Below, piece after piece: positions 1 through 63,520 of a stretch of 64,000 nucleotides of DNA. The stretch is from Leucoraja ocellata (Eukaryota): contig JAWMAR010000250.1 of assembly GCA_036785375.1 (NCBI GenBank), positions 2,232,001-2,296,000 on the forward strand, written 5' to 3'. The notes under the pieces are model-generated. The model searched no databases and had not been told where the DNA came from. It saw only the letters and a list, made by a program, of their open reading frames with translations. The stretch's first letter is position 1. Each line of letters starts with the position of its first letter. The translations under genes were made by a program, and so were the position numbers.

Positions 1-3000
1 GCCTTTCTGTGTGATTAGTAGTGTAACATTTTTCAGTCTTCCAGTTCTCCCTCTACGCACACACGTCTTCTATATGTTTGTGAGATTGTGGAAGGGCATC
101 TGCAATTTATTTATTTAGTTTGTTCTGTCAACAGCTCGAGATTCATTCCATATGGGCCTGACAATTTATTCACTTTCAGCGCAGCTAGCCTTTTGGTACT
201 TTCGTCAATTTTATCCGGATCCCATCATAATGCTCCAACATTTTTATTGGTAAAGACTGATATCAAGTTCTCAGTTAGCATTTCACCCATGCTCAGTAAA
301 TTTTGCTTAGTTGTTTTCTGATCAATGTACCTTTCAGCCCTTGTATCATATTTTTGAATCCCTTTAATTTTTGCTGAATCGGGTTATTTTATGAATGAAA
401 TTTGATACCAGCAATGGACATTTGGGTGTGTCTCTGGAGAATTATTTTAGATGGGAAAGCAGTGGAACTAACAAGAATGGTGTGGTTATTGAGAAAGAAT
501 GTTACACTGGTTGTTATGGAACTTAATCCTGAGGGTGGAGAACAGTGAAGATATTTTCAGGCTGATGCCCTGTTTTTCCTGTTCTATACTTGGACAGGTA
601 AAAAACTATTGATTGTTGAAAGCAAAATTCTCCAACATTGCTGTCACTTGGAAACCATAGTGCAACAAGTGTGTCCTGGAGTGAGTGAGTTTTATTTGCA
701 TATGATGTGATTACATGTTTAAACCCCACAGTGGGGAAACACAGGAAGAAATATATCTCACTTGGAAGTCAGGCAGAATCTCTGGAGAAAAAGAATGGGT
801 GATGTTTTGGGTTGGGACCCTTCTTCAGACTCAGTTCAGTTTTATCTTTTGTGTTCAGGCAATTTTCTGTAGTTCTCTTTTAAAAAAGAAAATGAAAGCT
901 AATGGCTCTCAAGAGTTTTGTTCAAATCATTTACTTTATAGTATTATACATCAGTTCGTAGAAAGTAATCTCAAGGATGTTTACATGCTCATATTAGCTT
1001 AGAAATGTTTAACTCAATTGCTTATTTTCTTCCAGCATCTCCCATAATGTATGGCCTATCAAAACCTGAGCTTGTTGCTCCTAGTATGTCAATCATTTAT
1101 TTTGTCTTGATCTTTTTCTCCAGCTATGATGTTGTTCAGGTGGAGTGGCTTGGATCCATAAATTATCTTGTTATTGGCCCTTTCCCAAAGATATGGGAAT
1201 TCGGGAGGAAGAAGCCATTTACACCCTCGGGCAATGATTTCCAACCTCTTTTGAATGAAATCTCTGCTTGTTTACACACATACCTGCTGCTGTTTATTAC
1301 CCTCTCCCAACAAAATAAATTCCAGATGCCTTTACCATAACGTCATTACGGTTTAAAAGTTGGGGCTGTTTTGTAGATTGCTAGCAGTCAAGTAGCCAAA
1401 ACAGTTTGTGTGCTGAATAGGGTTTTGTGTATTTCTACTTGGCACATACTGGCAAAATGTCTGCAATCTTAAAGTTTTGTGGCACCAGTGTAATCCATGT
1501 CAACGTAAGGGTTCACAAACCCCACATTGGGGGCTGATGTTCCAGTTTATTCTGGCATTCAGCTGTAGTAGATACCTTTTGATGATTTTGATCTCTGGGA
1601 ACTATAATTCATACGAGAAGTAAGTTACTAATTTCCGCTACCCTTTGACAATTTTTCTACTTGAAATAAAAATCCCTCTGGATTTTCTCTACCACAAGAT
1701 TACTTGATATATCTACTTTATTTTATCCTGGATCATCTTGGAGCCCCAATTAATTTATCCTACAACTAGAGGGTGTAATAATGTATGCAACTTGTCATCA
1801 AGCAGTAAACCTTAAAGCCCTCATATAATTCTATGGAATTCATACCGAACCCCTCCAAGGCCAGTATATCCTCCTGATGTGCATTGCATAAAACTCCAGC
1901 TGGGGTCCGACCAAGATGTACAAATAAAGCATAACTTCCTCCCTTTCTGTATTCTTGTACCCTTGAGAAGGCTAACATGCTCTTAGCCATTTGATTATTT
2001 TTTCACACCTGCTTTTAAATGATTAATACACCTGGGGACCCAAACAATTTTCTTTCTTGTGTCTGAATGGAATGCATTTCATTGTGATTCTTTTTTTCTT
2101 TTTGGTTCCAATGTTGGTGACCTTCGACATCCCTGTGCAGAACTCCATCTGGTGCAGTTTCACCTATTTATTTAATAATGTTTCTTTGCAACTTCCTTTT
2201 CTCCAGCTAGTCAGCTGACTGTGCCTTCGAACTTAGTGCAACATTTTAAAGATAGACCTAATTCTGTTGAACACACCAAGAACTGCAGAATGATGTAAAA
2301 AGCTGGAGTGGCTCAGAGAATGTCTCAGGTACTCCAGCTTTACGTGTCTATCTTCGTTTTAAACCAGCATCTACAGTTCCTTCCAACCAGGAACTGCAGA
2401 TGCTGATTTATTTAAACAACGACAAAAGCTGAAGTAACTTAGCAAGCCAGGCAGCATTTCTAGAGAACGGGTGACATTTTGCGTCGGGACCCTTCGTCAG
2501 ACTTGATTGATGAAAGGAGGGCGAGAAAGCTAGAAGAGAGGTGGGGGCGGGATAAAGCCTGGGAAGCCCTTTTCAGTACTTGCAATTCTATTGTTTCATT
2601 CAAACTGATGATACGTGTGGTGAATAGTTGAAATACTAGTAGATCTCTCCTTATAATCTACCAATTAGAGTAATTTTCTCTCCCCATCCCCTTTAGCACT
2701 CTTAATATATTTATGGAAGCTTATACAATTTGATTTGATTTCCTTACAAGATTTTAAAAGTGTTTTAGTTTTACTAATTTATTGCTCTGCCTAGCTTTCC
2801 CCGTCATTTTTTTTTGTCAAAGCATTATTTCTTTTATTCTGTCTTTGCCTCATTTTATTCCTGTGGCTGCTCAGCTCTTAAAATGGATCATTTACATTTT
2901 GTGGAATGTATTGGTTTAGTGATGTACTTCTTTGCTACTTTGAATTTATCCTACAATTTGCAACTATGAATGGTGATGTCCAGATGATGCGTCAATTTAT

Positions 3001-5571
3001 CGCTTCTACTTGGTTTAATACCTTGATTTATGGCACATGCCCCTCAAATCCAAATTATTTAATGAAAAACTTCCATTTAAATGGACTTTTGGATTTTTTC
3101 TTTCTCAAATACCTTGTGTAAATTTAACATTGAGACTCCATGCTGAATTCTCCAACAGGGAAAATATCTTTTTTTACATTCCCTCCAGGACCACTCTAAA
3201 GATTGCATTATTTTACCTACTTTCTTTCAAATTACGAGTACATTTGATTTATGCCCTGTCCAAATCACAGCTCTAATGAGACTTGGTATCATTTTGAAGA
3301 ATCTGTGTTGCTCATTTTTTCATGGTCAGTATATCCTTTCAAAACTAAATATGCAATTCTAGATAAAATCTGATCAAAGAACCATGTACCTGAACACTTA
3401 ATGTTTATCTTTTCCTATTAGGAACATAGCTGCATTTGTTTTTCTTGGATCTGAAGTGGATGATCTTGCACTGTAGTCCACCTGCTGCAGTTTGATTCAA
3501 TTAGTTAGTTTGTCCCCTTATAGCTTAATGCTTCCATTATGTTGTGATTCTTAACTTGGGTTCATCTAAAAATGTGAATACGCATCTCTGTTCCTTTTGT
3601 AGAAAAGTTGAGATACCAGGGCAAATCCCAAAGGAGTGCATTTATTATATTCTTCTCAGATTTTTCTTCCCCTCTTCCTTCACTGCCTCGGATTCAATCA
3701 CTCCAAATGCCAATCAGAATCCATTCTAATTATCCTTTGGATCTCCTGGCTATTCGGTATTAATTTTCTGAAATAATGTAGTATTTCTGGGAATCCAAGT
3801 GAATGACATACACTGTCCACCATTTCCATCATCTCAAAATGTATAACTAGCCCATTGAGATTTAATCTGTATTTCATATTTTATCTTCTACATTTCAATG
3901 AAATCACTGTCTTTGCTAAAGCATTAAGATTACTTGGGGATTTGGTGTCTATGGAAACATATCCAAGAGACAAATATTGGCACGTTTAACATTTTCATTT
4001 CTGACCTTGTTGTCTCACTGAGCCATATCTCTTTCTTAATAGAGGGAATTGGTCGGAGGGATTTATCCCTAAATTCAGCAGAATTTCCAGAAATTACGAA
4101 GAACAGTTGTAGGGTATGCGGTCATAAAAAATAGATCCAGGTCCCTCCAGAGTGAAGTTGGAAACAATTCTTGGCAGAAGAATATTGATGCTAGGTCAAC
4201 AGTTGATATTAAATTTAAGATGGGTAGGTGTTTAAGCAAAGATGATATGGGGTATACAGGTGGTGGAGGTAGGCCACAAATTAACCATTAATAAATGAAA
4301 GTGCAAGCTTGTGAACATAAATCTACCCTGATCTGATGTTCTTAGGAAATTCATTCATTTTTAATGTCTGAATGCCTATGGTTGAGTTGGTGGTTTGTGG
4401 TCTACTGAAATGAATGTTCATTCCCTTTATTCTCCATTCCAAAGTTAACATCTTTATCTAAGGATGGAACCACGGATGTTAAAACCTTTCAGTGGGAAGC
4501 TATCAAAACCATCCTGCATCTTCTCATTTATTGTGCTCAATCCATTCTGCAGCAATTTTTCTTATTAATTTTATTATTCTCCACTTTTGAACCTGCTGCT
4601 TAGGAGATACCTTCATTCAATATTTTTTTTTTTGGCATCATTAACTGTATTGCTTCCAAGTTGATCCATGTGTGATTCTCTTCAGAGTTCTGAGTAGAGG
4701 AAGGGAAATATGATGTTAAAGATTGAATCTTTATATGGAGAAATGGATATAAGAATATTTAATGTTTTATGCTGTATTATGACCGATCCCTAAACTATAT
4801 ATAAAAACCTATAAGCTGAGAAATCTGCTCCTACCTGGTTTTCAATCCCTGAGCTTAAGCAATCACTCAATGCAGAGGTGAAAAGGCCTCGCTGTGCACC
4901 TGAAAAGGTTGGCTGAAACTTCTACATGATGTCTGCTACATTGCATTTCGATTTCATGTGATTTTCTTATTTAATACCGCTTCCCATGTGCATGTCAGGC
5001 AGCAACTCAAAACTCGCACTACGTCACACCTACTTGTTTGTAAAGCATTTTGGGGCGCTGAGTTTGTGAATGGGTGTAGGTAATTGCATGTTTTCTGTTT
5101 GAGGTTGTGTAAAATGTGCCTGCAAAGGTCACTAGAACATTCAGCCCACGTATTATGGAAATAATTGCACAGCATAATGGATGAATCCACATTTTCATTC
5201 TCAATATTTGGTTGAATGGAGGCCTTGCTTTTGACTGTTTTTGGAAGCAAAGTGTGAGAAAGGGCATATGCCGAGGAGGAAATATTAAATGAGGAATGGC
5301 CAAGAGCCAGAGTAGAGTATGGCAATAACTTGTACAGCATTTGTCACATTTGGTCTGTAAAAGCTGAGGGCACTAAATATAGGACCACCTATTCCAAGAA
5401 CTACACCCATTTTGAAAGGATTCCTATATTACTATTGACCTGGATTACCGCAACTGAGGACTCTATTGCAGTAGATAGTGTACTGACTTGGTGAGGCAAA
5501 TTCATAAAAGATAATCAGTCTGATGGAAAATGGAATGCTAATTAAAAAGTAACTCTTTCAAAGCGGATATT

Positions 5572-6450
5572 ATTTACATAGAACAGTATAGATACAGGCC
5601 CTTCAGCCCATTTTCAAGTTCAAGTTACACTTATTGTCACATGCACCAATTGGTACAGTGAGATTTGAGTTACCATACAGCCATACAAATAAAAAAAACA
5701 CAACACACGATAGAATTTAACATGAACATCCCCACGCAGTGGAATCGAGGTTTCCCACTGTGAAGGAAGGCAATAAAGTTCAGCCATCTGTTTTGTGCTG
5801 ATCATGATTCCCCTATTCTTGGCCTATTCCTGTCTGTCTAATGGCTCTTAAAAATTGCTGTCTGCTTCCACCACTTCTCCCAGCAGGGTCTACCTGCATC
5901 TATCACTCAGCCTTTTAAAAAAAAAAAGCCATGCAAAGTTCCTTTTAAAATTTACCCCTCTCACCTTAAATTTATGCCATCCTGTATTTGGCTGCTTCAA
6001 CGTGTGAAAGATTCTCACTTGGTAAAGAAGGGTCTCGACCCGAAAAGTTGCCTATTTCCTTCACTCCATAGATGCTGCCTCACCTGTTGAGTTTCTCCAG
6101 CATTTTTGTCTACCCTCACTAGGTACTATATCACTGCCTCTCATAATTTTATAGTATTCTGTCAGGTCACTCCTCAAAGCTCCAGAGAAAGCAATCTACG
6201 TCTGTGTGACCTGTTGTAGCTAATGTTCCCTAATCCAGGCCATATCCCAATGAAGCTCTTTTGCACCCCCTCCAGCCTCCCATCCTTCCTGTAGCAACCA
6301 AAACTGTATATAACACTCCAAATGTGGTTTTGCAAAGCTCCATACAACTGCAAAGGTTTTTGAGTACAGGAACAAAGGTGTCCTATGTAAGTGCAACAGG
6401 GCACTGGCGAGATCTTGACTGGGAACAAGTAGCAATGCACCATCTCCCAA
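5572..6450 (-). mobile_element. CR1-clade LINE 3' relic containing nested insertions
   Basis: Minus-strand KPHLECYIQFW and RKDGRLEGVQKSFIGIWPGLGNISY; 3' end tgggctgaagggcctgtatctatactgttctatg. Confidence 0.8.
6025..6114 (+). mobile_element. Short PLE-derived insertion nested in a CR1 relic
   Basis: aagaagggtctcgacccgaaaagttgcctatttcc...; imperfect TSD ctcact(t/a)ggta at 6014-6024 and 6115-6125. Confidence 0.78.
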
Positions 6451-6886: not shown

Positions 6887-7306
6887 CTCGGTGAGACCAG
6901 GCACAGGCTTGGCAATCGCTTTGCACAACGCCACTCAGATCGCAATAACCAACCTGATCTGCCGGTGGCTCAGCACTTCACCTCCCCCTCCCATTCCGAA
7001 TCCGACCTTTCTGTCCTGGGCCTTCTCCATGGCCAGAGTGAGGCCCACCGCAAATTGGAGGAACAGCACCTCCTATTTCGCTTGGATAGTTTACACCCCA
7101 GCGGTATGAACATTGGCTTCTGCAATTTCAGGTAGTCCTTGCTGTCTCCCCCCCCTTCCCCTCCCATTCCCAGCTCTCCCACAGCCTACTGTCTCCGCCT
7201 CTTCCTTTATTTTTCCCACCCCCACCCCCGGACATCAGTCTGAAGAAGGGTCTCAACCAAAAACTATTCCTTCGCTCCATTGATGTTGCCTCACCCGCTA
7301 ATTTTC
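6887..7306 (+). mobile_element. Penelope-like element 3' fragment: C-terminal GIY-YIG endonuclease region, 3'UTR and decayed hammerhead motif
   Basis: Translates GETRHRLGNRFAQ...DLPVAQHFTSPSHSESDLSVLGLLHGQSEAHRKLEEQHLLFRLDSLHPSGMNIGFCNFR*, typical of the end of a PLE GIY-YIG ORF. Followed by a pyrimidine-rich UTR and then cagtctgaagaagggtctc...cctcacccgct. Confidence 0.88.
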
Positions 7307-7572
7307 TTTTTTTTTAAAATATTTTTATTAGAAGTAGTGTACAATAATATAAGTCATGAATAACATATTACATTTCGTGTACAACTTCTTATTTTTAATT
7401 TAATAGTAAAAAAAAAGTAAGAAAAGCAAGAAATAGAGAGAAAGAGAATATTATATAGAGTAGTGATATTGTTAGTTCGAGAAGAAATAGAAATGAAAGA
7501 GCCCATGGGGCTGTATAGCCCGAAGGAGAAAACAAAGAAGTGAGGTGAAATAAGAAAAAAAAGAGAATAAAG
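7307..7572 (-). mobile_element. Poly(A)-tailed retroelement 3' end (L1/Tx1-like)
   Basis: Minus strand ends ...AATAAAaatattttaaaaaaaaagaaaa after a T-rich 3'UTR-like stretch. Confidence 0.45.
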
Positions 7573-14324: not shown

Positions 14325-14415
14325 TCTGAGGAAGGGTTTGGCCCGAAACGTCGCCTATTTCCTTCGCTCCATAGATGCTGCACCCGCTGAGTTTCTCCAG
14401 CAATTTTGTGAACCT
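14325..14415 (+). mobile_element. Short PLE-derived insertion starting at an intact hammerhead core, 14-bp TSD
   Basis: tCTGAGGA-AGGGTTTGGCCC-GAAA-CGTC-gcct..., flanked by the direct repeat tcttaactctgcat (14311-14324 and 14416-14429). Confidence 0.85.
14326..14356 (+). ncRNA. Minimal type I hammerhead ribozyme core (PLE-type)
   Basis: CUGAGGA, extra A, stem II GGGU/GCCC, GAAA, palindromic ACGU stem III, GUC cleavage triplet. Stem I is poorly supported by the flank, so activity is doubtful. Confidence 0.6.
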
Positions 14416-14804: not shown

Positions 14805-14902
14805 GAAGGTGGACACAAAATGCTGGAGTAACTCAGCGGGCCAGGCAGCATCTCTGGAGAAAAGGAGTAGGTGACGTTTCGGGTAGAGACCCTTCTTCAG
14901 AT
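14805..14902 (-). mobile_element. Short PLE-derived repeat with intact hammerhead core (14873-14900)
   Basis: Minus strand reads CTGAAGA-AGGGTCTCTACCC-GAAA-CGTC-acc, followed by the family terminal segment. Confidence 0.8.
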
Positions 14903-18250: not shown

Positions 18251-18478
18251 GTGTTTAAGAAAGAACTGCAGATGCTGGAAAAATCGAAGGTAGCCAAAAA
18301 TGCTGGAGAAACTCAGCGGGTGAGGCAGCGTCTATGATGAGAAGGAATAGGCGACGTTTTGGGTCGAGACCCTTCTTCAGACCCTTCTTCAGAAGAAGGG
18401 TCTTGACCTGAAACGTCGCCTATTCCTTCTCTCCAGAGATACTGCCTCATCCGCTGAGTTTCTCCAGCATTTTTATCC
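18251..18478. mobile_element. Palindromic (head-to-head) PLE-derived element with 12-bp TSD
   Basis: A minus-strand arm with ~38-nt tail is joined at cccttcttcag/aagaaggg to a plus-strand arm. TSD acagctttactt at 18239-18250 and 18479-18490. Confidence 0.85.
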
Positions 18479-21381: not shown

Positions 21382-21463
21382 GTAGACACAAAATGCTGGA
21401 GTAACTCAGCGGGTGAGGCAGCATCTCGGGAGAGAAGGAATGGGCGACATTTCAGGACGAGAC
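21382..21463 (-). mobile_element. Short PLE-derived insertion, 11-bp TSD
   Basis: gtagacacaaaatgctggagtaactcagcgggtgaggcagcatc...gacatttcaggacgagac; TSD tctaatggagc at 21371-21381 and 21464-21474. Confidence 0.8.
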
Positions 21464-34233: not shown

Positions 34234-34273
34234 TACAACCTGTCACATTCCGCATCGCCTGGCATTTAGCCAG

Positions 34274-36061: not shown

Positions 36062-36156
36062 GTAGACACAAAATGCTGGAGTAACTCAGCGGGACAGGCA
36101 GCATCTCTGGAGATGGGATGGGTGATGTTTCGGGTCGAGACCCTTCCTCAGACTGA
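36062..36156 (-). mobile_element. Short PLE-derived repeat with near-intact hammerhead core
   Basis: Minus strand cagtCTGAGGA-AGGGTCTCGACCC-GAAA-CATC-accc. Confidence 0.8.
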
Positions 36157-40653: not shown

Positions 40654-40786
40654 TCAGTTTGAAGAAGGGTCTCGACCTGAAACGTCACCCATTATGTCTC
40701 TCCAGAGAGGCTCCTGACCCGCTGAATTATTCCAGCATTTTGTGTCTACGGTGTAAACCAGCATCTGCAGTTCCTTCCTATACACC
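40654..40786 (+). mobile_element. Short PLE-derived repeat
   Basis: cagtttgaagaagggtctcgacctgaaacgtcaccc...ccagcattttgtgtctac plus tail aaaccagcatctgcagttccttcctatacac. Confidence 0.8.
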
Positions 40787-43463: not shown

Positions 43464-43582
43464 TCTGAATAAATGTCTCGACCCAAAACGTCACCCATTC
43501 CTTCTCCCCGGAGATGCTGCCTGTCCCGTTGAGTTACTCCAGCATTTTGTGTCGACCTTGCATTGAAACCAGTTCTTTCCTA
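43464..43582 (+). mobile_element. Short PLE-derived insertion, 15-bp TSD
   Basis: Begins tctgaa...gtctcgacccaaaacgtcaccc; TSD cagctctgtagttgg at 43449-43463 and 43583-43597. Confidence 0.85.
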
Positions 43583-44083: not shown

Positions 44084-47000
44084 GTAAGATTACATTTCTG
44101 GTACATCTGTTGCTCTGTGAGCCAATGTAAATGTTTTACACAGCAGAAGTGAGCATATTCTCAAGCTCGCAAACAAGTTTTGCTGTGTAATTTTCACACA
44201 TGAAATGCCATTTGGAAATAAAAGTGTTTTTTGAAGAACTGTGAAAGAACTGTGTTATTTACATTGAAAGCATTTGGAAAGTGGTGATGTCTAATTTTTG
44301 ATATTCAATCAGATTTGCTATGAATGGAATGTACCAAGGTGGTTCAAACATGAAAAATCTTCATATCTTAACTAATGTTTTCAGTGTTGATTATAATGGT
44401 TACTTTATCTTAGTAGTGGTATGATGATACCCTTTGGGAATTACTTGACAAGCGTAAAGATGCTGTTGAAGTGTCAGTCATGTTAATCTATGAATAATGG
44501 GGTGTGTTTGCCTTTGCAATGCTGATACTTTGCAACAAAGGCTACTGAGGTAAATAATCTAGGCATTAAGACAGAAATCAAATAAAAACAAAATTTGAGT
44601 CCATGCGAGGAGTTAAAGGAAGGTTAGAATTGCATGTGCATAGCACCAAAAGAACATCTCACAAGGTGCTGACTTCAGCATGTCATTTGCATGGGCCTTA
44701 TCTCTAGGGTACCAGTTATCATTTTGAGATAATGAAGCACTAAGATTATTAAAAGAGCAAAGAGTAGAGAGAATAGATGAAGCAGGAGCGATGAATTGAG
44801 AGACTTGGGTGTTTGTAACAGTCCCTCTATGTAGGCCGCATATACTGTCTAATCAAAGGAGAGGGTGGAATGAAGCAACTGCGTACTAGATCCTTTTTGT
44901 GTATGTCTACAGATACGTTTGCAATAAGGGGGTCTGTAATGGATGTTAGTTTACCAGCAGACCAGTGTCTGCTCTTCTCATTGATTTTGCATTTAATTTA
45001 AGGATCAATCAGATTTTTATCGTGCAATTTTTTGTTGGAAGGATGCCACAATAGTGAGGCACATAATATAAAATAACATTTCTAGAATTATGGATACCTC
45101 AATATGCCCCTTCTATTTGTGTACCAATAAGAAATGTTGCCAAACATGCCCAATATTGTATTGGGACTGGATCGATGGATGTATGTTTAAGACGCGTCCA
45201 AATTCAAACTCTTTGACCGAATGTCCACCTTCATTAGAAGCAACATTATCCTTAATCTATTCTCAATTGCATTGGCCAGTTACAGGTAAAAGATCATGAC
45301 ATTTGAGGTGTTTATTTGTGAGATTATTCTCTTGATGAGGTGTTAGTACAGCGGGGTCACATTTAGCTACTGCCATTTCTGTGTTAAGCTATTCCATAAA
45401 TTCTGTAAACATTTTTAAAAGTAATCTCTCTATTAAAACAGCAGCTTGAAGGCAGTCAGTGGCCTATTCAACCTTTATTTAAAATGCTTCTTGTTTTACT
45501 CAAGATTGTCCTTCTAAATATAGGAAGTAGAACAATGTGTAAGTAAAAATTCTTTGTAATAAACTGTTGGAAGAAAAACTTAGTTGTAGTTATTTTTTCC
45601 AAATAATTGGAACTAAAGATTGTGTTTGCAATTTCTCCTGATGTGAGGAATGCAAGTGGTAGCAATGGAAATAACCAGGACCCAATCCAGAAATTATTTC
45701 ATATTGCAGTGACTCTTTGTTCCACGTTCATGAGCAGACTGCTTCACCGCATATTTTCTCTTTGAGGAAAAATGCTTTTCTTTTCTCCCCACATTATGGT
45801 GGCAGAACTTGGAAGTTATTACTGCTATCTTTTACTGGAGTTAGGACAATTAAAATAAAAATTGTTGCATACTATAGATTAGTTTCAGCCTTTTGGTTTG
45901 CTGTCTGGACATGCTCATGCCCTGGCCAGCTTTGAAAGGGGTTGAAATACGAGTGGTGTGATTGCAGCCTGCACATTTAACTGTTTCATAGGACAGTTTT
46001 AATCTTCTAAATTCTCTTTGCAGTTGTTCAGCTCCAGATATTGCTTTTGTTGATGATGACTTGGGTTTTAGCTCGCTCTCTCCTGCACTGAAGGAAGGGA
46101 TAGATTTGCTTGGGTTGTGGCCCTGCAAATGCTTTATGGTGGCATCTCCAATTTCCCCCATTTTAACAAGGTTATCATTGAGGAACCTTATCATTAACAA
46201 ATCCTATCCTATCCATCTCCATTCCCAATTGGAGCTTCATAAGTTATTGGTGCTGCCTCGACTTCAGGGCTCTGGCATTTGATGCTATCTGGGTGGGGTT
46301 TGCATATTCTCCTTGAGAACAACAGTTTCTGTTATGTGCTCCTGCTTCCTTCTACATCCCATGTGCTGGTAGGTTAATTGTCCTGTGTAAGCTATCTCAG
46401 TGTAGGCAAGTGACAGATGCCAATTGATAGGCGTGTGAGAGAGTAAGTTTCAGGAAGAGAGGGAAGAACAAGAATATTGTTGATCCTGCAGACAATGGAT
46501 CATTGTGGATTCCACCTTTCCTTGATCATCATTGCTGGCTTTGATTTATCCTTTTGCCTATCTCTCATTCATTTGTTCTATGTACCTTTTCGAATCTCGT
46601 TTCCCTCTCCCCTGATTCTGTCTGAAGAAGGACCTCGACCTGACAAGTTATCTATTCATTTCCTCCGGAGATGCTGCCTGACCCGCTGAGTTACTCCAGC
46701 TTTTTATGTCTATTTTAGGAATATTTCTGATCTGATTCCTCTGCTTGATGTGAACCAGATGGACAGCATAGTTCCCCACTTTGTTATAATGCATATGAGC
46801 TTTCCAGCATGTGTATTTGAATGAAAGCAAGGAAAAATCAGGGCAGGCGCAGGCCATTTGGCCCTTTCTACCATGCAAAGTAATTATGGTTCATCAATTG
46901 CAGAGCTATTTTCCTGCACTCTTCCTATACTTTGGGCAGCTGGAATCCTGGTTTCATTTTTCAGCTCCAGTGATGATATTTCCAACCACAATGGACTGAA

Positions 47001-47902: not shown

Positions 47903-48090
47903 GGACAAAAATGCTGGAGAAACTCGGCGGGTGAGGCAGCATCTATGGAGAGAAGGGATGGGCAACGTTTCAGGTCTCGACCCGAAACGTCGCCCATTCC
48001 TTCTCTCCAGAGATGCTACCTCACCCGCCGAGTTTCTCCAGCATTTTTGTTTACCATCGATGTTTCCACCATCTGCAGTTCTTTCTTAAA
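47903..48090. mobile_element. Palindromic PLE-derived element, 13-bp TSD
   Basis: Arms fold about ggt-ctcg-acc (hammerhead stem-loop II); TSD cctttgatcaagt at 47890-47902 and 48091-48103. Confidence 0.87.
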
Positions 48091-48689: not shown

Positions 48690-51600
48690 TAGTTTGAGGG
48701 TGCTTTATCATGTCAGAAGAAGAGTCTCAATCCGAAACGTCACCCATTCCTTCTCTCCAGAGATATTGTCTGTCCCGCTGAGTTACTCCAGCATTTTGTC
48801 TGCCTTATGTATCTTTATACTGTAATGGCTTGATTGTAATCAGGTATTGTCTTTCTACTGATGGTTAGCACACACCAAAGGCTTTTCACTGTACCTCAGT
48901 TCACGTGACAATAAACTAAACTATTGTCATTGTGGGAATACCTTTCCAGAAGGACTGCATTAGTTTGAGGCCACCAGCTTTCTGCTTGAACGATGATGTT
49001 CCAACAAACAATGTGTGGGCCTAGAAATATTGGCAGGGAATTTACAGGGAAAACTTTCAGATTTACTCTTTACAGTCAAACGATGAGTCTCCCGAATAGT
49101 TTTTAAGGTTTAGATATTTAAAAGGAATTTGTCAATTGTTCTTCCTTGCCTACAACCTGTGAAGATGAACAAGGAGGTAAAGAATTTGAAAGACAAATTC
49201 CTAAAGTTTCCCTTTAGGAATTTTCCCAGTCATCTGATCCTTTTCTGATGTAATATTACAGGAGAATGAAGCATAAAAAACAGCCTGGTCCTGGAAAATC
49301 CAGTTCCAGAAACCTGGTATCCGTCATTATATAAATTCTCTCCTTTGTCATGCATTTCTTTCTGACCATTTTTTTGGGGTTAATTATTGCATGTACATAA
49401 TTTTGAAAATGGCATATCAAGCCCTGTCTGTGCACATGTCCTCAAAGTGTATGCGTGGTTCCACTCTGTCCATTTTTGTTTTTTGGGACGTCACATGGTA
49501 ACAAATTGAGAAATGGGAATGAAATTTGATCTAACTATAGTTTGATGCAGGAAGTGCTGGATTAGGAGGGAAATCTCTTTACAATTTGCATAACCTGTGT
49601 AATTTGACTCTAGGGGAGGGCATTTTGACTCGATTTCTCTTCATTTTCATCTTTTTCGGTCGTTCTCAAAAGTTGGTTCGTTGTTAATTCAGCAACGTGT
49701 TCAGTCATCGTAGTTTGATATCATTATTACCTGTTTAGTTATTTTAAATTACTTACTTTTAAGTATTATTTTTGAAAGCTTTTATTTTGAAGGAGTGACT
49801 AAACAAAGTTTAGACAATATAGTTAAATATTGCAATCTAAGTTATTGTTGCATCTCAATGGCGTAAAGCCATCTATGCTATCGTCCATGAACTGAGCCAT
49901 TGAGTGAGGCACAATAGGGTTATTTTCTTTCAGAGGTGGCGTATTTTGCCAATGTGAGGAACAGCAGATATTATAAACTTGCATAGAACGCAGTGCTGGA
50001 GTAACTCAGTGGGTTAGGCAGCATTTCTGGAGGACGTGTATAGGCAAAGTTTCAGGTTGGGGCCCTTCAGACTCCTATCTCAAGATGCTGAAACACACAT
50101 TGGGTTTCAGCCTGAGCATTATGGCCTCTCAGCTCTGGCAGGTTTCTAGCTAGTATGTGTAAGTGTCATTGAAACCTTGTAGATGTGGAGTTTTTGTGGT
50201 GTTAACAAGAATGCTCTTGGCATAAAGATATTCTCGTTATAGCAACATGGACTAAGTCATGTTTCCAGTAGAATTTTTTTTTCCACAATGCCTGCAATAT
50301 TAGACTAGGTGTTCAGTTTCTTGATGGAATTGAACTTGCTGCATGCAAAATTTAGCGCATTGGCTGGATCAAGTTGTGGTACGGTTTTAATAAAAATGTG
50401 AACTTTGTACTTTCTTTGTGGTTGGAAAGGGAACTTGTATTGATTTTCATTTACTATTTAATTTTTGAGTTCCCTTTGAATTGGGTATTTCTTAAAATGT
50501 TTCACTCCAGTTAGTCAACTTATTAAAAAGGGCAACACTTAACAGCTATTTTTAAACAAAACAGGAAGAAGGGCCACAGTGACTGCATAATTACCTGATG
50601 CCACGTGGCCAAGTCCAAGTCCAGCTGGCACGTGAGGGAGGGGAGCAGGCAATTAAAAGTTGGACCGCGTCACTAATGGACAACAGCCGTTCCAGTGCAT
50701 ATAAAAGGGAAATGAAAAGTGCCACTCCCTGTAAACTATTTTGGTGAATCTAGCAGTATGAATGTTTGGTGATGCAATTCCACTAAAATTAAATTTGCTG
50801 GCATGCCTATGAGATATTGACAAAAGATTGCAGTTGTATCTCAAACCTATGATCTAGTTTTCTGTATATTGCCACTGCTCACAAACACCCTACTCCCTTA
50901 CATATCAGTTAAGGTCATAACATTAGTCAATCTAACTTGAGGCATTTATGGCTTAATGACACGTATTGCATGACAGTTCGGGGTGTATTGCTAATAATTC
51001 CTGAGTATTATTGACAGTATCTGTGGTGACATTTTATTTCATAAGGGTTCTTTAAAGAGTCCAGTGGAGCCTATAAGTCACTTGTCCCCTTTGTGTTTGT
51101 GATTTACAGACCTCTTGCACTCACTAACACACAATGATTTAAATAGTCTTAATATTATACCCCTAGGTCGTGAAATGAATTTGGGTCAAATTCTGATCAA
51201 TAAAATAATTCTGATTTATACGATGATTTATGCTACTAAACATTTCTACATTCCCTGTAGCACTACACTATGGCTGAAAATGGAAAAATAAAGACTGATG
51301 TTTTTGATAATTGTACTGTAAACCATTTATGACAAACTTTATGATATTAAGACCACATTTGGCAAATGACTATTTTGAAGAGGCAGTAAACGTGATATGC
51401 ATCTCATAAAAGCCTGTTCTGGTTTAAATCACCAAGAGAATTTGGATGGTGGCTGCTTGGTGGGGCTTGGCAGTCTCATACTTTGTTTTGGAAATGATGC
51501 TGGAAAACTAAAGGCGGTCAAAAGCAACTAACCTGAATGAGGTAACATGTTAAATTCCAATCTATATTCATAGTACCCCAAAGTAACACAGAAATGACAG

Positions 51601-53294
51601 ATGGATTTAAATGCATACATTGTTAGAAGCTGCAATGTTGTAATATTCGTTTTTGGTATCTGATGGTCACTTTGCTACTTTTTAAATTTGCATGTGTAAT
51701 TTGATCTTGGGATGCGGTGTACTATTTTCAAAGTATGTTATGTGACTTTAATTCATAACTTGAATCCCTTGCATTGATGCAACTAAAAATAAAATGCATC
51801 CTCTCGCACCCTCGTCTTCACTTTCCCAACTCCCCACCACCCACTGGATCCCCTTTACCCCCAGCTAGACTCTTTGCCCCTATTGCTTTCAATTTCACTT
51901 TATCTTCCTTTTCAGTCACTTTCCAGATTGTGTAGTCTTTTGTTCTCCACTTATAGCCGAACAGCCTCAGTCATCTTTCTCCACCACCTGAATATTACCA
52001 GGCAATCAATCCATCCTCGCCTATATGCAGCAGTTTACTAGCTTTTGCCCCCCAACACCTCCCCGTCTCTTTATACTGATTAATTCCACTCTTTTCAGTC
52101 TAGATCTGAAACCCGACTGCCCATTTCCCGTTGTCTTGCTGCCTTACCTGCTGAGTTCCTCCAGTAACTCTCATTTTCTTGCCACTTTGAGCAGTGGGTT
52201 AAGCTATAACACCCAACCTAAGAATGTACTTTTTGTACCTTTTTCAATCATTATCCGACTGAAACTCCCATAACGAAGGTAAATGGCAGATGGATTTTGT
52301 AAAAGAAAAACTCACTTTTCAAAAACAGAAGCTTGGGAATCTTAGAAAGAAGGAATGGGTGGCGTTTTGGGTCGAGACACCTCTTTTCCTGTCTGAAGGT
52401 TCTCAACCCAAAACATCACCCTTCTACCCAGATATTCTGTCTGCCTCGTTGAGTTACTCCAGCATTTTGTGTCTATCTTTGATATAAGCATAGGAATCTT
52501 GTTTTATATGTGCAGTTTCCTGTTTCGGTCTTGAACATATAAATAAGGAGCATTTCAAAATCACTCAAGGGCAATAATCTTGACAAGTCTGAAGCAAACT
52601 TCACTGAACTGATCCTTATAAATGTTTGCACTGCTGGACCACATGGATACATTGGAAAGTATCCCTGGTGAAAAATCGTTCTGTGGGTTTATCTTGACAT
52701 AAGTTAGAGTTGATTATGCTGTGGGAACTAATACCCTGTAACAGTATTGTGTCCTTTGGTAATAAATGTATCAATCAGCAGGACAGGCAGTATCTCTGGA
52801 GAAAAGGAATGGGTGATGTTTTGGGTCAAGAAGAAAGATCTCGACCCAAAACGTTCAATATTGATACTGTTCTTGAAAATATGACTTCTGTCAAGCAGGA
52901 TTTTGATGCATGCAAATCCAAGATACAATGATGCTGTATAAAATTGGGCATTTACAAGGAGTGTCAGAAATGAATTTGCACAACATCGAAATGTATTGCT
53001 TAAGAAGTCAAATTTTATATATTCTTACAGCGATCACCATTTAGTGAAAAGAACCAATCCAATTTGTAGACACCAGTGAATGATGCATTCCCTTGTAAGT
53101 TCAATGGGTACTGCAAAATGTCCAAATTGAAAGGGAGGGAAATTTATGCATAAAGTTGAAAAGTCAACCTCGATGTTCCTCGATGTAAATTATTCTATCT
53201 CAAAACATGCTATTTCAACAATGTAGAACACTTCCCCCCCCCCCCCCCCCCCCAGGTTTTCAGTTGTGTTGTATTGTTGACATTAGCATTTAAC

Positions 53295-53574: not shown

Positions 53575-54397
53575 ACTTCTGGGTGTGTTTTTCTGTACTC
53601 TCCACTTGAACCTTGGAGCAACACTGTAATAATAACCCTGAAAAATTCCCCACATTCTCTTTAGTGGCTAAAGTTCATTAATCACGATGGGCTAGTTTGA
53701 ATTTATTGGTTATTGCATTTTAAATGCTTTTTAGTAAAGTTATCATTATAGTCCAAAGGCTAAAAAATATTGGACTTTGTTCCACTGATATATGATCTTG
53801 TTATGAAATTGAGGAATGTGGACCTGATTTACATTCCAGTTACACAGCAATGCTGATCTAGTCTTTGATTGGATGTTCCTAAATATTATACTTCTGTAAA
53901 CTAGCAGAGCTGCAGGAATGTTATACATTTTTAGTTGATAAGGAACAATTTCTCTTCAATTTTATCAATCATAAAATTGCATTGTGTTATTTCCAGACCT
54001 TTTGCATACAAGTGCTTCCTGTTTTGAAAGCAGATTTCTTCCAACTAAGAAGCATGTGGAATGAAGTTAAAGCAGTGACCCCTCTCCACAAAGCTTTCTT
54101 TTGCTGTTACAAAGCCTTACGTAGACCGGTATCTTTGCAATGGCGTGACAGTATTACTGCCGCCTCAGTTTCAACAAACTTGGTCAAATCTTTACTAAAT
54201 CAGAATTCCTGTACACACAGGACAGACAAGATCTTGTATTGTGTTCGATCTCGGAGACCTTGAGTCAACCCCAGCTCTCGAAGCAATCCCATTAGTCCTA
54301 TTCCCTCTGCAACCCATTCTCTCTTGGTGGTCATTAATTTCCCTCTGATTCTCCTCCCATCTACTTTTGAGGGGTAATTTAGAATAGCTAATTGTCT

Positions 54398-54490
54398 TAG
54401 GTAGACAAAAGTGCTGGAGAAACGCAGCGGGTGCAGCAGCATCTATGGAGCAAAGGAAATAGGCAATGTTTTGGACCGAAACCCTTCTTC
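54398..54490 (-). mobile_element. Short PLE-derived repeat inserted in an old SINE
   Basis: gtagacaaaagtgctggagaaacgcagcgggtgcagcagcatctatggagc...ttttggaccgaaacccttcttc. Confidence 0.8.
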
Positions 54491-57885: not shown

Positions 57886-60064
57886 CATCACAGTTAGTGC
57901 TTTTGTAGTCTGTACTTTTTACTGATAGCCTAGTGCTATCACCTCACTAGACAGATGTTATTATTTCAAAGCAATTCCCTCCAGATCTGCTAAGATTGAT
58001 TCCTTGAAGGTTTGCAATTGAACTGTATTGTTTTTCAGACGTAGAGGGAGTATGAAAATTAAGAAGCAGCAATTATCCAATTCCCTGAAGGTGGAGGATG
58101 AAGCAGAGGAGATTTTTTTTTTAATGCTTTATTTATGCATTGCTTGTTACATGGCAATGTATATTGTTCAGTTGTACCAACCAGTGTAGGTTCAGTCATC
58201 TATGCTAACTTACTAAATGCCAGAACCCTCATTTGAAGTGATTCAATCTGAAGGATCCTGATCCGAAACGTCAGCTATCCATGTTCTCCAGAGCTCATGC
58301 CTGACCCGCTGGGTTACTCCAGCACTTTGTGTAAACCAGTATCTGCAGTTGCTTGTTTCTACAACCCTCAACTCCTCCCTGGTTTCTTTTGAGAAGTGCA
58401 AAGGTCAGAATGTTTTCATAGCTTGCTGTTGAGACTTCCATGTGGGAGAATATTGTGAATGAAGAATTTTTTCCCATGGCTTTTGCCCGCCACTGATATC
58501 TCTGTACAGTTTGCATCATTGGCAAAGTGCATGTGCGGTGGTGAGATGGGAAAGGGGAGTCCACAGTGAAAGTTGATGAAAATATGGTGAATAAAATGGG
58601 TGGACTGTTTCAAAATGGATGTTTGGTGATCAGCGCAGACTGTGAGTGGAATGCCCAGAATCTGTATCGTTTCTCACTTAACTGAGATTACAGGGTTCTA
58701 CTAATACATATTTCGCAGTAATGAACATAGTTCCGAATCCATCAGTGAAGGGGCACGGCATTTTTGCGGTTGAATATTTTTACAAAAACTGTGATTGTTA
58801 AAAATTATGTAATGTGCTGTTACTCCAAGCACTCATTTTAACGACCACTGGCATTTAACTGATGTATAACATCTTTTGAAAATACTTTTTTCATTGAATT
58901 CTTTCAGGAAAGGCACTGGTAAATGTATTGAAGGTTGTGGTTGCTGCCGTATGTGAACCATTATGGTTGGGTGAATATTTGCTTTGCTCTGTAACCTCCC
59001 TGATGCTTTTGTAAATGACAAAGTAAGAATTTTCAGACCAGCTTGAAGATGGAATTTTATTTTATTTTATAGTTCCACGAATTGAGCAGACACGCAAGGT
59101 GTACATAATGTTGTGAATAATGAGAGTTGGGCATACGTTTTACAGTTGATGGGGGCGAGGGATCTTTTGGTACATTCTCGTTGAATGTTTTTGTATTTAG
59201 GATTCTGTAGGTTGCAGATCCTGATGTTAACAGCAGGCAGCACCAACCTTAAAGTCAACAGTCTACACAGAGATTGGGCCTGTTGTGACATATTGCCGTT
59301 ATATAGCTAGGACAGGATTAAGATTAGTTATGGAGGAAAGCCACATTTGAGAAGGATACTCCAATCTCATGTATGGTGGTTAATGTTGAGCCCTGCATTT
59401 TTCTTAGTTTGGTTTAATTTGGAGAATCTGTGCGGACACAGGCCCTTCGGCCCACCGAGTCTGTGCCAGTTTCCACGTCGCCTATTCCTTCGCTCCATTA
59501 CCCGCTGAGTTTCTCCAGCATTTTTGTCTACCTAAAATGTTAAATGTCAGTATGTTTGTTTCCTCAACTTTTCCTGGAGTAAACATGAGGGAGGTGTGTC
59601 ACTTCTAAATTAAACATTTCCTACTTATTTGTTGTTTTGTAACAGTGTCCAGCAAGCTTGGGTCAGTCAGTTTAGCTTTATTTAGTTTTATTTTTGCCTT
59701 GAGCTTTGATCCCAGCTTTTGAAAGACTAGCCTCTTGCATCAGTGTCCACTTTTCTGTGTACAATCCTTCTGGACCTTGTAAGATTGACATTTTGAATTA
59801 ACAAAGTTGGCTTTCTGTAAATCCGAACCCACCGGGCATTGTGCTGAAGCTAACTCCTTTCATGTGTAACATAAATCAACACTGAAATTCTCGACCTGCT
59901 TTCCAGGCTTACTTTAAAACCGGGGCGTAGAAATGAAGCACCACTAATGGAACGTTGTGCCAACTCATTGCACCATCCTGCCTGCTAATGAGGCAAATTT
60001 AAAAACCCATGCCAGCAAACGAATCCAACCCTTAAATTTAACATCCAATATAGAGGAGTCCAAT

Positions 60065-61224: not shown

Positions 61225-61404
61225 TTCAAGAAGGAACTGCAGATGCTGGAGAATCGAAGGGAGACAAAATTGTTGGAGAAACTCAGCGGGTGCGGCAATA
61301 TCTATGGAGCGAAGGAAAGACGCAACGTTTCGGGCCGAAACATTGCCTCTTTCCTTCGCTCCATAGATGCTGTCGCACCCGCTGAGTTTCTCCAGCAATT
61401 TTGT
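61225..61404. mobile_element. Palindromic PLE-derived element, 14-bp TSD
   Basis: Arms fold about gtttcgggccgaaac; TSD aaacccataatctg at 61211-61224 and 61405-61418. Confidence 0.87.
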
Positions 61405-62386
61405 AAACCCATAATCTGCACTTCATGAGCTCCATATCGCCCTTTAGCCTTGTAGCTCCATGTCCACGTGAATCTTCTCCCCACAGATGACGTCCACATT
61501 GTAGATCGAGATGGATCGTGATTAATTTTAAAGAAACAAAATTCTGGATGCACTGCGCAGTGATGGAAAGAGAAATAGAATTAACCTTTCAGATGGAAAG
61601 CCCTTTTGCAGAGTACATTGACTTAAAATATCAACTCTGTACCTCTGTGCCCCAGTGCTGCCTGACCTCCTGAGCATTTCCAGCATTTTTCTGTTTTAAT
61701 TTCAGAATCATAAGGTCAGTGGAGCACAAATAGATTTCCATCTTCGGCAGATTTTGCTTTCAGGATCTTGATAAGTTGCGGTGATGAGGCATTGACCTGA
61801 AACTTTAATTCTATCTGTCTCAGCAAAATGCTACATGATCAGAATGCTGGAGGTGCTCTGGTTACAGTTGGTTTCTTGATGGCTGCAACAATTGAGGGCT
61901 CTCCTAATAAAGAATATTGTTTGTAGAGGAATGAACTGCAGACGCTGGTTTAAACCGAAGATGGACAAAAAGCTTAGCGGGTCTCTGGAGAAAAGGAATC
62001 GGTGACGTTTCAGATTGAGACCCTTCTTCAGACTGATGTCCCCGAGTTACTTCAGCTTCTTGTGTCTATCTAATGTTTGTACAGGATAGTCATGTTTACC
62101 ATCTTTAAAACGGAGATTAAGGAGAGAGAATTTGGTCAGGATGTAATTTTGATATTGATTAGTGGTTTCAATAGTGGTAGGGCAGAGATAGCAATGCAAC
62201 GGACATATTCAGCGCTGGAGTTGTATACAAGTACAGCTTTTACCAATGTGCCTAAAAGATAATAGGAAGCGTTTAGCATCAATGCAAAAGCTCCCTGTTT
62301 TGTCCTTGCAGAATAGACACAAAGACTATTATTCTGTTGATTTTCCCCATACACTTCATGTTGGATCGCATCCCTTAATTAAGTGT

Positions 62387-62650: not shown

Positions 62651-63264
62651 ATTGCTTTCAGCAAACTCCATATTCTACACTGAAATTTGTGCGATAATTT
62701 AAAATATCTTACGTTTATTAATACAAACTCTTGCTTTATGTGAAATCTAGCCAGCTGACTTGTGGTTTAGCTTGCTTCCATCTCTTCCTGTTATGGCCTG
62801 AAGCCAAGTAAAAAGTATGTTTTCACTTATGCAAAATGGGAGATGTGGGTCAGAAACATTTTTGGTTCTGTTGTAATCTAAACAGAAAAGCAAATCCACT
62901 GTACAGTCAAATCTCTGTTTCTAATCCACTACAAGCTGAACTTGATGCTGAAGAGTATCCTGGCAACATAGTTCAGAAATAGTGATGGTGGTGAAGGCAA
63001 GTCTCTTTCCCCTTGTGTCAGGTGATGTTATCCCACTGCGAATGTTTATCTCACAGTGCCTGGAGAAGATCTGCACAGCTTGGCTGCTGCACTGAAGGAA
63101 TAAGCACACTGAGTTTGTTCTTTGCATCGTTTATAAGAAAAGCTGGTTTTGGTTGTGATTTCGGCACTTTGTGATTCAAACGCTTTTGTGCGTGGGACTT
63201 TCTTGATATGAAGCCATCTTGTTTGTCAACGATTTCTGATGCACTGGCTTGTGTGTTGAATTCT

Positions 63265-63520
63265 GTGCAGGGAGGAACAGCAGATGCTGGTATATGCTGA
63301 AGAGAGACAAAATGCTGGAGTAACCCAGCAGGTCAGGCAGCATTTCTGGAGATAAGCAATAAGTGATGTTTTGGGTTCAAACCCTTCCTTCTATTCCTCC
63401 CACCCCCACACTTGCATCAGTCTGAAGAAGGGTCCCAACCAGAATAGCACCTGCTGTGTTACTCCAGCACTTTATGTCCTTTTGGGTAAACCAGCACCTG
63501 CAGTTACCTTTTTCTAAACA
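63265..63520. mobile_element. Older palindromic PLE-derived element
   Basis: Minus arm ggaacagcagatgctgg...aaatgctggagtaacccagc and plus arm cagtctgaagaagggtccc...actccagcac...ccagcacctgcagtt. Similar decayed copies lie at ~770-832, 2270-2570, 33470-33550, 35380-35475, 35845-35975, 46615-46712, 48712-48802, 49985-50090, 52345-52520, 58247-58365, 59473-59533 and 61920-62070. Confidence 0.7.

Follow-up and report, generated by a model that had tools for sequence, protein, structure and literature searches.

The short repeats dispersed through the 64-kb window (the whole stretch of DNA analyzed here) are truncated at their 5' ends in a nonrandom manner, and most of the ends lie at a hammerhead motif. 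We consider it probable that these repeats are the 3'-terminal stubs of several endonuclease (EN)-bearing Penelope-like element (PLE) subfamilies, produced by reverse transcription (RT) that stopped near the hammerhead.

Using a profile HMM, we recovered 45 arms covering 4,374 nt (6.8% of the window), against 0 matches in 10 shuffles of the sequence. A covariance model likewise returned 45 matches, with a membership slightly unlike that of the HMM list. The arms (24 plus, 21 minus) group into 32 clusters, or 33 insertions after splitting 34047-34538, which amounts to about 1 insertion per 1.9 kb in this window, and they surround exons of a skate or ray gene resembling ARHGAP35 (Table 1). The dispersed short repeat of at least 20 copies claimed in the sequence-only reading is thus borne out. 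An elasmobranch host is also supported. The closest named hits of the EN fragment are batoid proteins (Leucoraja, Rhinoraja, and Hypanus). Hairpins within the repeats yield spurious sub-threshold microRNA matches.

The identification of the motif as a PLE minimal type I hammerhead is supported by its fit to the published minimal consensus, CUGANGAH-G..C-GAAA-palindrome-UH, for which helix I lengths of 2 to 6 bp are listed (Cervera and De la Pena 2014, PMC4209133), and by its extra A after A9 and its ACGU palindrome. The core (CUGANGA/GAAA/UH) is present by column majority and intact in 5/45 arms; the four cores named earlier were located at 14326-14352 (+), 14873-14900 (-), 34335-34362 (-), and 36124-36151 (-). 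The extra nucleotide between 9 and 10.1 is A in 35/36 arms, and the closing pair 10.1-11.1 is GC in 19, GU in 7, and AU in 3 of 38 arms. Helix I has 2 bp with the native flank and no more than 2 bp in any of the five intact cores (1 bp in three of them). Canonical type I features (a 6-bp helix I and loop-loop contacts) are absent, helix I having 2 bp and helix III no loop. The ACGU stem III palindrome (self-duplex energy, -1.7 kcal/mol) holds by column majority, with CG at 15.2-16.2 and 23/80 of these bases decayed, but at 36151 it reads ACAU, so the dimer palindrome is lost there. A "ggg-t" 5' variant noted at 18380 proved to be the product of a 12-nt tandem duplication at a junction, and the only 4-bp stem I is therefore nonnative.

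As had been proposed, most copies are inactivated; G12, for instance, was lost by CpG decay in 17/40 arms. Private substitutions are as frequent in the core (23/322, or 7.1%) as in the flank (131/1,516, or 8.6%; p=0.44), showing that copies decay neutrally after insertion, without an excess conservation of the core, a lack that the sequence-only reading had named as refuting its proposal. With pooled flank columns, the core appears more conserved (17/233 versus 146/1,048; p=0.005), a result that we attribute to differences between masters, the core itself having also served in part to choose the core arms. The majority consensus of all four subfamilies retains the core except at CpG columns, while 14/61 flank columns differ. 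N7 was more variable than the other core adenines (4/21 versus 3/126; p=0.008, post hoc).

Structural predictions were less favorable. Stem II pairing had been said to be kept while loop II varies. The loop words do vary (CUCG 11, CCCA 6, CUCA 4, UUCG 3, CUCU 2, and CCCG 2 among 40 arms) and 87% of stem II cells pair, but there was no excess over column shuffles, which reached the pairing and covariation scores for 6 pairs of stems I and II (25/45 arms aligned) in 135/500 and 178/500 cases; with decayed copies of few masters, this test has little power. The two subfamily changes that fall at paired sites are each compatible with U-A/U-G pairing. The proposed search with Rfam covariance models gave 23 matches at E<=5, none to a hammerhead family, and RNAalifold returned no consensus structure from the arms. 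In the five copies tested, the hammerhead fold lies 4.7 to 9.1 kcal/mol above the minimum free energy (MFE) structure, and none of the homodimer MFE predictions for eight copies is the hammerhead dimer. The MFE predictions do not favor self-cleavage as a dimer or with PLE protein, and the present copies are not expected to cleave.

Derivation of the family from a PLE is upheld by the location of the motif in the pseudo-LTR (pLTR) after an EN ORF and by the subfamily-diagnostic (A-type) bases which the EN-linked copy has in common with the short copies. This motif (7239-7267) does follow the end of a GIY-YIG ORF, as had been stated, beginning 104 nt after the stop of the C-terminal fragment, but its core is broken (G12>A plus a 6-nt deletion across U16.1/C17). 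It is the one copy (7240) firmly joined to an EN ORF. Homologs P0042, P0056, P0064, and P0147 of the EN fragment carry RVT_1 and GIY-YIG matches, mostly below Pfam cut-offs. The close batoid homologs P0002 and P0006 have a CX2-5CxxC linker, at a position outside the window fragment; such a linker between RT and EN marks Neptune/Nematis (Craig et al. 2021, 10.1101/2021.04.23.441226; Arkhipova et al. 2013, PMC3846280). Judging from these protein matches, the parent is probably an EN-bearing PLE of the Neptune clade. Within the window there is neither a full-length parent nor an RT core; a separate RT-thumb-like remnant lies at 7864-7986 (-).

The 5' ends fall at -9 to +11 nt of hammerhead C3 in 33/35 short arms, or 24/26 insertions (p=9e-11 per insertion); the 5' offsets were hand-curated before this final test, and 10 arms were excluded, namely 7 "long" ones (4 of them classed by pyrimidine content alone) and 3 with a gap or consisting of 3' fragments. 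Planted shorter fragments, derived from copies similar to the HMM training set, were recovered in 117/120 trials. The same clustering recurs in four subfamilies, with a scatter of about 20 nt within each, and 4/5 single copies bounded by target site duplications (TSDs) start at -1, -1, +3, and +10. The copies are therefore not the random-length 5' truncations that the sequence-only reading had named as a refutation. The cleavage site, C17, is spanned by 40/45 arms and none starts at 1.1, a distribution that fits the uncleaved RNA and internal priming described in vitro (PMC11167929). At the other end, the copies fall into two 3' end classes separated by about 35 nt, with an optional tail of about 35 nt that a script flagged in 13/45 arms, one of these being a TSD look-alike. 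TSDs of 10 to 15 bp scored >=10 in 7/32 clusters versus 1/142 mismatched pairs, and two more were found separately; for most of the 33 insertions no TSD was found. Head-to-head arrangements account for 10/33 insertions (among the 11 multi-arm insertions, 10 are head-to-head and 1 is tail-to-tail), and in three doublets the joint lies within a hammerhead palindrome. Thus, 5' truncation, an inverted truncated copy, an optional tail, and TSDs, all hallmarks of EN+ PLEs, are seen here.

Table 1. Repeat copies and associated features of the window (starts are relative to hammerhead C3)
Positions	Strand	Feature
768..831	-	Single arm, start about -3, G12>A
2328..2560	both	Tail-to-tail pair; minus arm probably extends into pyrimidine tract
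6025..6114	+	Single arm from A6; 11-bp TSD, 1 mismatch
6887..7135	+	5'-truncated C-terminal half of PLE GIY-YIG endonuclease, TAG end; EN profile iE 1.5e-36; 72% identity to Leucoraja erinacea protein (E 3.9e-26)
7132..7238	+	Pyrimidine-rich pLTR spacer, EN stop to hammerhead; shared with 63380-63420 (p<1/300); GT...AG bounded, putative intron by analogy with D. virilis Penelope; 3' end also initiator-like
7239..7307	+	EN-linked copy: broken hammerhead and downstream segment, A-type
14325..14415	+	Single arm, start U2.1, 1-bp stem I, 14-bp TSD; only intact core on host sense strand
14806..14901	-	Single arm, intact core, 1-bp stem I
18251..18478	both	Head-to-head doublet, only the left arm tailed; 12-bp TSD, 12-nt junction duplication
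21382..21463	-	Single arm, start inside stem II, 11-bp TSD
24780..28500	+	Large coding exon of host gene, ARHGAP35/p190A-like; following exon at about 44000-44130
33466..33549	+	Single arm, subfamily C, G5>C, G12>A; start would be -25 given a possible 10-bp TSD (uncertain)
34047..34235	both	Head-to-head doublet joined in loop II/GAAA palindrome (axis ~34159), tail on left arm only
34274..34536	both	Three-arm insertion (-,+,+), 11-bp TSD; minus arm with intact core (34335-34362), 1-bp stem I
34648..34853	both	Head-to-head doublet, subfamily C
35363..35474	-	Single arm, start G-AGT
35847..35933	-	Older single arm, GAA deletion in core
36051..36158	-	Single arm, intact core, 2-bp stem I, ACAU replacing ACGU
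36660..36711	-	Arm interrupted by assembly gap
38305..38700	-	Subfamily C arm, long pyrimidine-rich 5' extension, weakly suggested to reach EN stop (frame: EFSN, stop)
40654..40784	+	Single arm with tail, C3>U
43464..43582	+	Single arm from U2.1, 15-bp TSD
46601..46730	+	Arm, probable longer pyrimidine-rich 5' extension
47903..48090	both	Head-to-head doublet centered on loop II (axis 47977-47978), only the right arm tailed; 13-bp TSD
48712..48808	+	Single arm, U4>A
49957..50073	-	Single arm, start G-AGT, GAA deletion
52088..52168	+	Old divergent arm behind pyrimidine tract
52344..52492	both	Head-to-head doublet, possible 8-bp TSD
52775..52856	both	Short head-to-head doublet
54394..54490	-	Single A1 arm
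58243..58360	+	Subfamily C arm with tail, GAA deletion
59475..59539	+	Arm from A15.1, the start nearest the cleavage site, yet 5' of it
61225..61406	both	Head-to-head doublet joined in loop II/GAAA palindrome (axis 61334), 12-bp TSD
61527..61709		Old degenerate arm, possibly doublet; strand unassigned
61931..62073		Minus arm, intact core (C3 at 62031), 2-bp stem I, weak stem II, plus inverted 3' fragment; 13-bp TSD, 1 mismatch
63262..63515	both	Head-to-head doublet; right arm retains 40 nt of spacer seen at 7200-7238

The route by which such stubs probably arise begins with a parent pLTR in which a minimal type I hammerhead would closely follow the ORF. By analogy with an Anolis PLE, the PLE protein would nick the target DNA and prime RT inside its own RNA, presumably at either of two positions that lie about 65 and 103 nt downstream of the cleavage site. 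RT would then copy through the uncleaved hammerhead and usually stop within about 10 nt of C3. The stop may be an arrest at the folded or protein-bound ribozyme, to which we give slightly better than an even chance, or a run-off at the RNA 5' end at an initiator-like TCAGT just before C3, a realistic option that we would place below even. A single cDNA would give an insertion of 80 to 135 bp; two cDNAs, one per nicked strand, could anneal via the self-complementary hammerhead sequence, giving doublets with a tail on one arm.

A more specific form of the run-off option, which we put forward tentatively and think rather doubtful, is that the stubs arose as run-off cDNAs from a capped RNA starting at this TCAGT, three bases before C3, so that the hammerhead would sit at the 5' end of the PLE RNA and its palindromes would form the joint of two opposite-nick cDNAs. 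Of the four arms starting at that A, three carry G instead of the native C before it (p ~0.05, post hoc), which would be expected from cap copying. If true, cleavage would remove about 31 capped nucleotides, only uncleaved RNA would be copied, and the hammerhead would have a role in insertion apart from catalysis. Batoid genomes could then hold around a million such base-resolution footprints, extrapolating from the insertion density in this window.

The sequence-only reading had instead proposed an ORF-less, retrozyme- or SINE-like family that seeds ribozymes. An ORF-less, self-propagating element (a mini-PLE, a SINE-like element, or a derivative of a retrozyme monomer) with short masters of its own, mobilized in trans by PLE protein, would also be expected to give tight 5'-end clustering; short copies outnumber firmly EN-linked ones by 33 to 1, the stub contains the region that suffices as an RT template in Anolis, and two A1 doublets match at 89% over 183 nt, as they might if a doublet had served as their master. 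Like our repeats, non-LTR retrozymes (Cervera and De la Pena 2020, PMC7229834; Li et al. 2026, 10.64898/2026.07.22.740005) are ORF-less, carry type I hammerheads, are pLTR related, indeed derived from pLTRs, and coexist with PLEs, and they are present in the only chondrichthyan sampled. However, they are defined by head-to-tail repeats with a hammerhead per unit (canonical motifs and circular RNA in the 2020 paper [PMC7229834]), whereas ours occur singly or head-to-head and their motifs are minimal and broken. None of 10 TRF rows contains a head-to-tail unit with a hammerhead, and there is no tRNA head or other tRNA, 5S, or 7SL match in the repeats and no convincing pair of Pol III boxes, the A- and B-box-like words in the four arms scanned having one mismatch and lying on the antisense strand. 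Moreover, the ends do not match the cleavage site, the clustering and its scatter recur from subfamily to subfamily, and the EN-linked copy has the diagnostic bases of the short ones. We therefore regard short masters as unlikely.

Two further alternatives concern the ribozyme itself. That the motif is merely hammerhead-like and never cleaved, even in the parent element, would account for the lack of Rfam matches and covariation, the 2-bp stem I, and the unfavorable predicted folding. Against this, every position of the PLE minimal consensus is present at the expected place after the EN ORF, the Acropora Neptune motif in PMC4209133 has an equal layout with a 4-bp stem II and a tetraloop, and related motifs are described as cleaving weakly as dimers or only with PLE protein; we find this alternative improbable. 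More improbable still is that the host has kept some intronic copies as working ribozymes on ARHGAP35 pre-mRNA. Five cores are intact, and one (14326) lies on the sense strand, but it has a stem I of just 1 bp and lacks an intact partner on that strand, G12 is widely lost, core and flank decay alike, and the arms are nearly balanced between strands.

Read as PLE stubs, the repeats can be set beside several known systems. With the PLE minimal hammerheads of PMC4209133, they share the CUGANGA-H core, G10.1-C11.1, the CG palindrome at 15.2/16.2, and a pLTR site after the EN ORF. Both occur as dispersed single motifs (thousands there, ascribed to truncated PLEs) and as nearby opposite-strand pairs. 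The 4-bp stem II and 2-bp stem I here are at the low end of that list; the alignment of 56 motifs there includes no chondrichthyan, and in the parts consulted the 5' ends of copies, mapped here, are not mapped to the ribozyme. With Neptune/Nematis-type EN+ PLEs (10.1101/2021.04.23.441226; PMC3846280), the repeats have in common a C-terminal GIY-YIG domain, a Zn-finger linker (in the closest homologs), 5' truncation, an inverted truncated copy, palindromic junctions, an optional 30- to 40-bp tail at one end, and TSDs. Unlike in those elements, most insertions here are the hammerhead-to-tail stub alone, and the palindromes at the junctions consist of hammerhead sequence; Arkhipova et al. (2013, PMC3846280) ascribed palindromic junctions to self-priming on an antisense template. 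The PAc Poseidon element of Anolis (Frangieh et al. 2024, PMC11167929) likewise has two 3' end sites downstream of its hammerhead with the tail between them, and its use of uncleaved RNA as the template, with both DNA strands nicked and extended, fits the copies here. It belongs to a different clade, however, its first start lies 85 to 92 nt past the cut site versus about 62 to 67 nt here, and, by reading frames, we noticed no open ORF start at stem II in our repeats.

It has been known since 2014 that PLEs carry hammerheads and that these are dispersed in single, truncated copies, so finding them in a skate or ray is no surprise. The repeat is thus of a known kind, and its nonrandom truncation adds a modest mechanistic clue. 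In the openly accessible literature searched, we found no paper on this family or on the clustering of its 5' ends. We propose "PLE 3' stubs" as the annotation label. The mapped ends bear on the role of the ribozyme in EN+ PLEs, for which copying of uncleaved RNA, stops at the 5' edge of the ribozyme, and doublets fused in palindromes are relevant evidence.

We conclude that the hammerhead-bearing repeats of this window are most likely 3′ stubs of a batoid Penelope-like element (PLE) with a decaying minimal hammerhead, an element of a type already known. With a profile HMM we located 45 copies (arms), which occupy 6.8% of the window and group into 33 insertions; 10 shuffled controls gave no arm, and a covariance model likewise yielded 45. 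The four cores named in the sequence-only reading lie where it had placed them; its observation is confirmed and its interpretation supported in part. The typical motif at 34335-34362 (-) (CUGAAGA followed by one additional A, a GGGU/ACCC stem II closed by loop CUCG, GAAA, CG, and UC) agrees with the minimal hammerhead ribozyme (min-HHR) consensus that Cervera and De la Pena give in the available text of PMC4209133, where the Acropora Neptune motif has the same layout; chondrichthyans are absent from the min-HHR alignment in that text. An Rfam hammerhead search of the window, a check proposed along with those cores, gave no match (the matching model is absent from Rfam), and bacterial and archaeal genomes, scanned for the same motif, gave 0 matches.

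The link to PLEs comes from the arm at 7239-7307 (+) (the 7240 copy). The endonuclease (EN) fragment preceding it has 417 relatives at E≤0.001, the longer of which fuse reverse transcriptase (RT) with GIY-YIG. Its close batoid relatives have the CX2-5CxxC linker, described in the accessible part of Craig et al. 2021 (10.1101/2021.04.23.441226) as a feature of Neptune/Nematis. The nearest named relatives of the transposon protein are from skates and rays, followed by whale shark; Pfam matched neither of the two EN fragments, whose identity comes instead from homology searches. That a hammerhead motif follows a GIY-YIG ORF end was borne out: it lies 104 nt past the EN stop, in a copy that is broken yet has A-type diagnostic bases in common with the short copies. 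The pyrimidine-rich spacer has GT at its 5′ end and CAG at its 3′ end, directly before U2.1, and, by analogy, may be an intron as in Drosophila virilis Penelope, whose intron terminates at helix I (PMC2377424, as far as its available text goes). In no copy is the EN-end exon fused to U2.1; a spliced-RNA origin of the copies was therefore rejected, and we only infer the intron. Among hammerhead-bearing arms, clear upstream homology joins the 7240 and 63422 copies only (2500 versus 38414, p = 0.06) in an all-against-all comparison. No hammerhead copy was detected behind the second, older EN C terminus. Separately, batoid NCBI gene models (P0001, P0002, P0004, and P0017; one a neuromedin-U receptor 1) finish with this PLE endonuclease tail, which is either exonization or an annotation artifact.

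Coordinates of coding remnants, host exons, and other repeats in the window
Feature	Position	Strand	Remarks
GIY-YIG endonuclease, C-terminal half	6887-7135		72% identical to Leucoraja protein
PLE coding remnant, RT thumb-like piece	7864-7986	-	
PLE coding remnant, endonuclease N-terminal piece	24025-24162	-	CxxC...GET
Second, older PLE endonuclease C terminus	55508-55800	+	coding remnant 55508-55754; stop again overlaps GT donor-like site
Stop-to-stop frame	24750-28529		1259 codons; p190RhoGAP domains
Further host-gene exon	near 44000-44130		
Second dispersed repeat family	19449-19622, 30819-31012, 53375-53561, 62455-62658	+	
Second dispersed repeat family	57690-57770	-	
GC-rich inverted repeat	17315-17653		arms 134 nt, 91% complementary, 71-nt spacing
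Repeat family D16	13554, 18954, 29979, 31261, 36977, 57843, 60296	+	seven 30-nt copies

Target site duplications (TSDs) scoring at least 10 flank 7 of 32 clusters, compared with 1 of 142 mismatched pairs, and two further TSDs were found. Eleven of the 33 insertions have more than one arm, in 10 cases head-to-head. The 3′ ends lie either ~62 to 67 or ~101 to 105 nt past C17; the difference is a ~35-nt tail, confined to one arm in the doublets (two arms head-to-head) at 18251, 34047, 47903, and 61225. A tail call at 61322 proved to be a TSD look-alike, and the idea of a resemblance between target sites and the tail was rejected (10 sites, p = 0.36). In the available portions of two accounts (PMC3846280, PMC8969392), TSDs, head-to-head arms, and a one-sided tail are known PLE signatures.

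A rival proposal, which we consider unlikely, is that the copies form a separate, self-propagating retrozyme or SINE-like family. Non-LTR retrozymes are defined by tandem hammerhead repeats (PMC7229834 and bioRxiv 2026.07.22.740005, in the parts available), and the window holds no tandem units; a Pol III promoter was rejected, and the arms have no Pol III head; and copy ends miss the cleavage site, with 40 of 45 arms spanning C17 and none starting at 1.1. On the other side, our survey covers one window, and short masters may sit elsewhere. A chance motif that merely resembles a hammerhead is improbable, and host use of the copies is more improbable still.

What is unusual about the copies is where they begin. 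Among 42 arms with usable 5′ ends (one gap-cut arm and two 3′ fragments were left out), 7 extend into a pyrimidine tract, 33 begin at -9 to +11 from C3, and 2 begin at +12 to +58. A constant stop rate predicts at most 31% within -9 to +11, whereas, with offsets curated by hand, 24 of 26 insertions fall there (p = 9e-11). Planted shorter fragments, which resembled the copies in the model, were recovered in 117 of 120 trials, and the scarcity of shorter copies is therefore not a detection limit. Of five TSD-bounded singles, four begin at -1, -1, +3, and +10 and the fifth, a doubtful case, at -25. The literature within our scope, which excluded Repbase, Dfam, and some papers and supplements, describes neither this family nor a gathering of 5′ ends at the ribozyme.

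For an Anolis PLE, the available text of PMC11167929 describes reverse transcription that begins at two internal sites 3′ of the hammerhead, with the tail between them, nicking and extension of both DNA strands, and uncleaved RNA as the main template. In the skate, RT would most likely prime 65 to 105 nt downstream on uncleaved RNA and halt at the 5′ edge of the hammerhead. The stop could reflect arrest at a folded or protein-bound ribozyme or, alternatively, run-off where the transcript would begin, in the initiator-like TCAGT before C3. G precedes AGT in 3 of 4 arms beginning there, a weak, post hoc hint that might suit cap copying. Two cDNAs from opposite nicks, one per start site, would anneal via their identical palindromic ends, which would explain the head-to-head order, the single TSD round the unit, and the tail on one arm. 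The symmetry axis lies in loop II in doublet 47903 and, in doublets 34047 and 61225, in a palindrome of loop II, stem II, and GAAA that is also seen in single copies 14326 and 54492; most remaining head-to-head junctions fall within the CUGAAGAAG segment. An alternative source of the doublet palindromes is self-priming on an antisense template, as presented in the available part of Arkhipova et al. 2013 (PMC3846280).

As the sequence-only reading had supposed, most copies are inactivated, for example by CpG decay: the core is complete in only 5 of 45 arms (C3 at 14326, 14900, 34362, 36151, and 62031), and G12 is lost through such decay in 17 of 40. Stem I is 1 bp in three of the five intact cores because the insertion begins at U2.1; the 36151 core has lost its ACGU palindrome, and stem II of the 62031 core contains two G-U pairs. 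The sole 4-bp stem I (18380) was created by a junctional duplication of 12 nt. PLE hammerheads, dimers included, are slow cleavers according to the available part of a review (PMC6765202). Covariation across 25 aligned arms, another proposed check, did not exceed that of shuffles; RNAalifold found no structure in these arms, and no MFE fold of monomers or homodimers was a hammerhead. Substitution was lower in the core than in pooled flanks (7.3% versus 13.9%, p = 0.005), and the flank figure fell to 11.3% with subfamily columns removed (p = 0.09). When every arm was compared with the consensus of its subfamily (37 hand-assigned arms; one omitted as misaligned), the anticipated excess of core conservation was absent (7.1% versus 8.6%, p = 0.44). 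Between subfamily consensuses, 14 of 61 flank columns differ and 0 non-CpG core columns do (G12 and C17 were rejected as subfamily changes, being CpG decay). Given this likeness in the core and no core excess in the copies, constraint operated on the parent elements, with neutral decay in the copies. Five arms, in three or more subfamilies (35932, 38414, and 50070 [-]; 52393 and 58248 [+]), have lost GAA (3 nt) from the 5′ core, probably by recurrent slippage.

The window (GC, 40%) is animal DNA, and ARHGAP35 was the top PDB match of its long p190RhoGAP frame. Copies between and after host exons are intronic; others lie before 24780, upstream of the first coding exon, in what is probably intron 1 of an ARHGAP35-like gene. 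An assembly gap of 200 N bases (36712-36911) opens inside a repeat copy. As to other repeats, the second dispersed family may resemble elasmobranch HE1/V-SINE, and the GC-rich inverted repeat is possibly a non-autonomous DNA transposon. Frame 29753-30073, which had no Pfam match, presumably resembles a LINE 3′ end. The arms of doublets 34047-34235, 47903-48090, and 61225-61406 differ at only 2 of 71, 5 of 72, and 6 of 70 positions, respectively, and therefore form long hairpins, which gave sub-threshold microRNA matches. Such hairpins could produce double-stranded RNA from host pre-mRNA.
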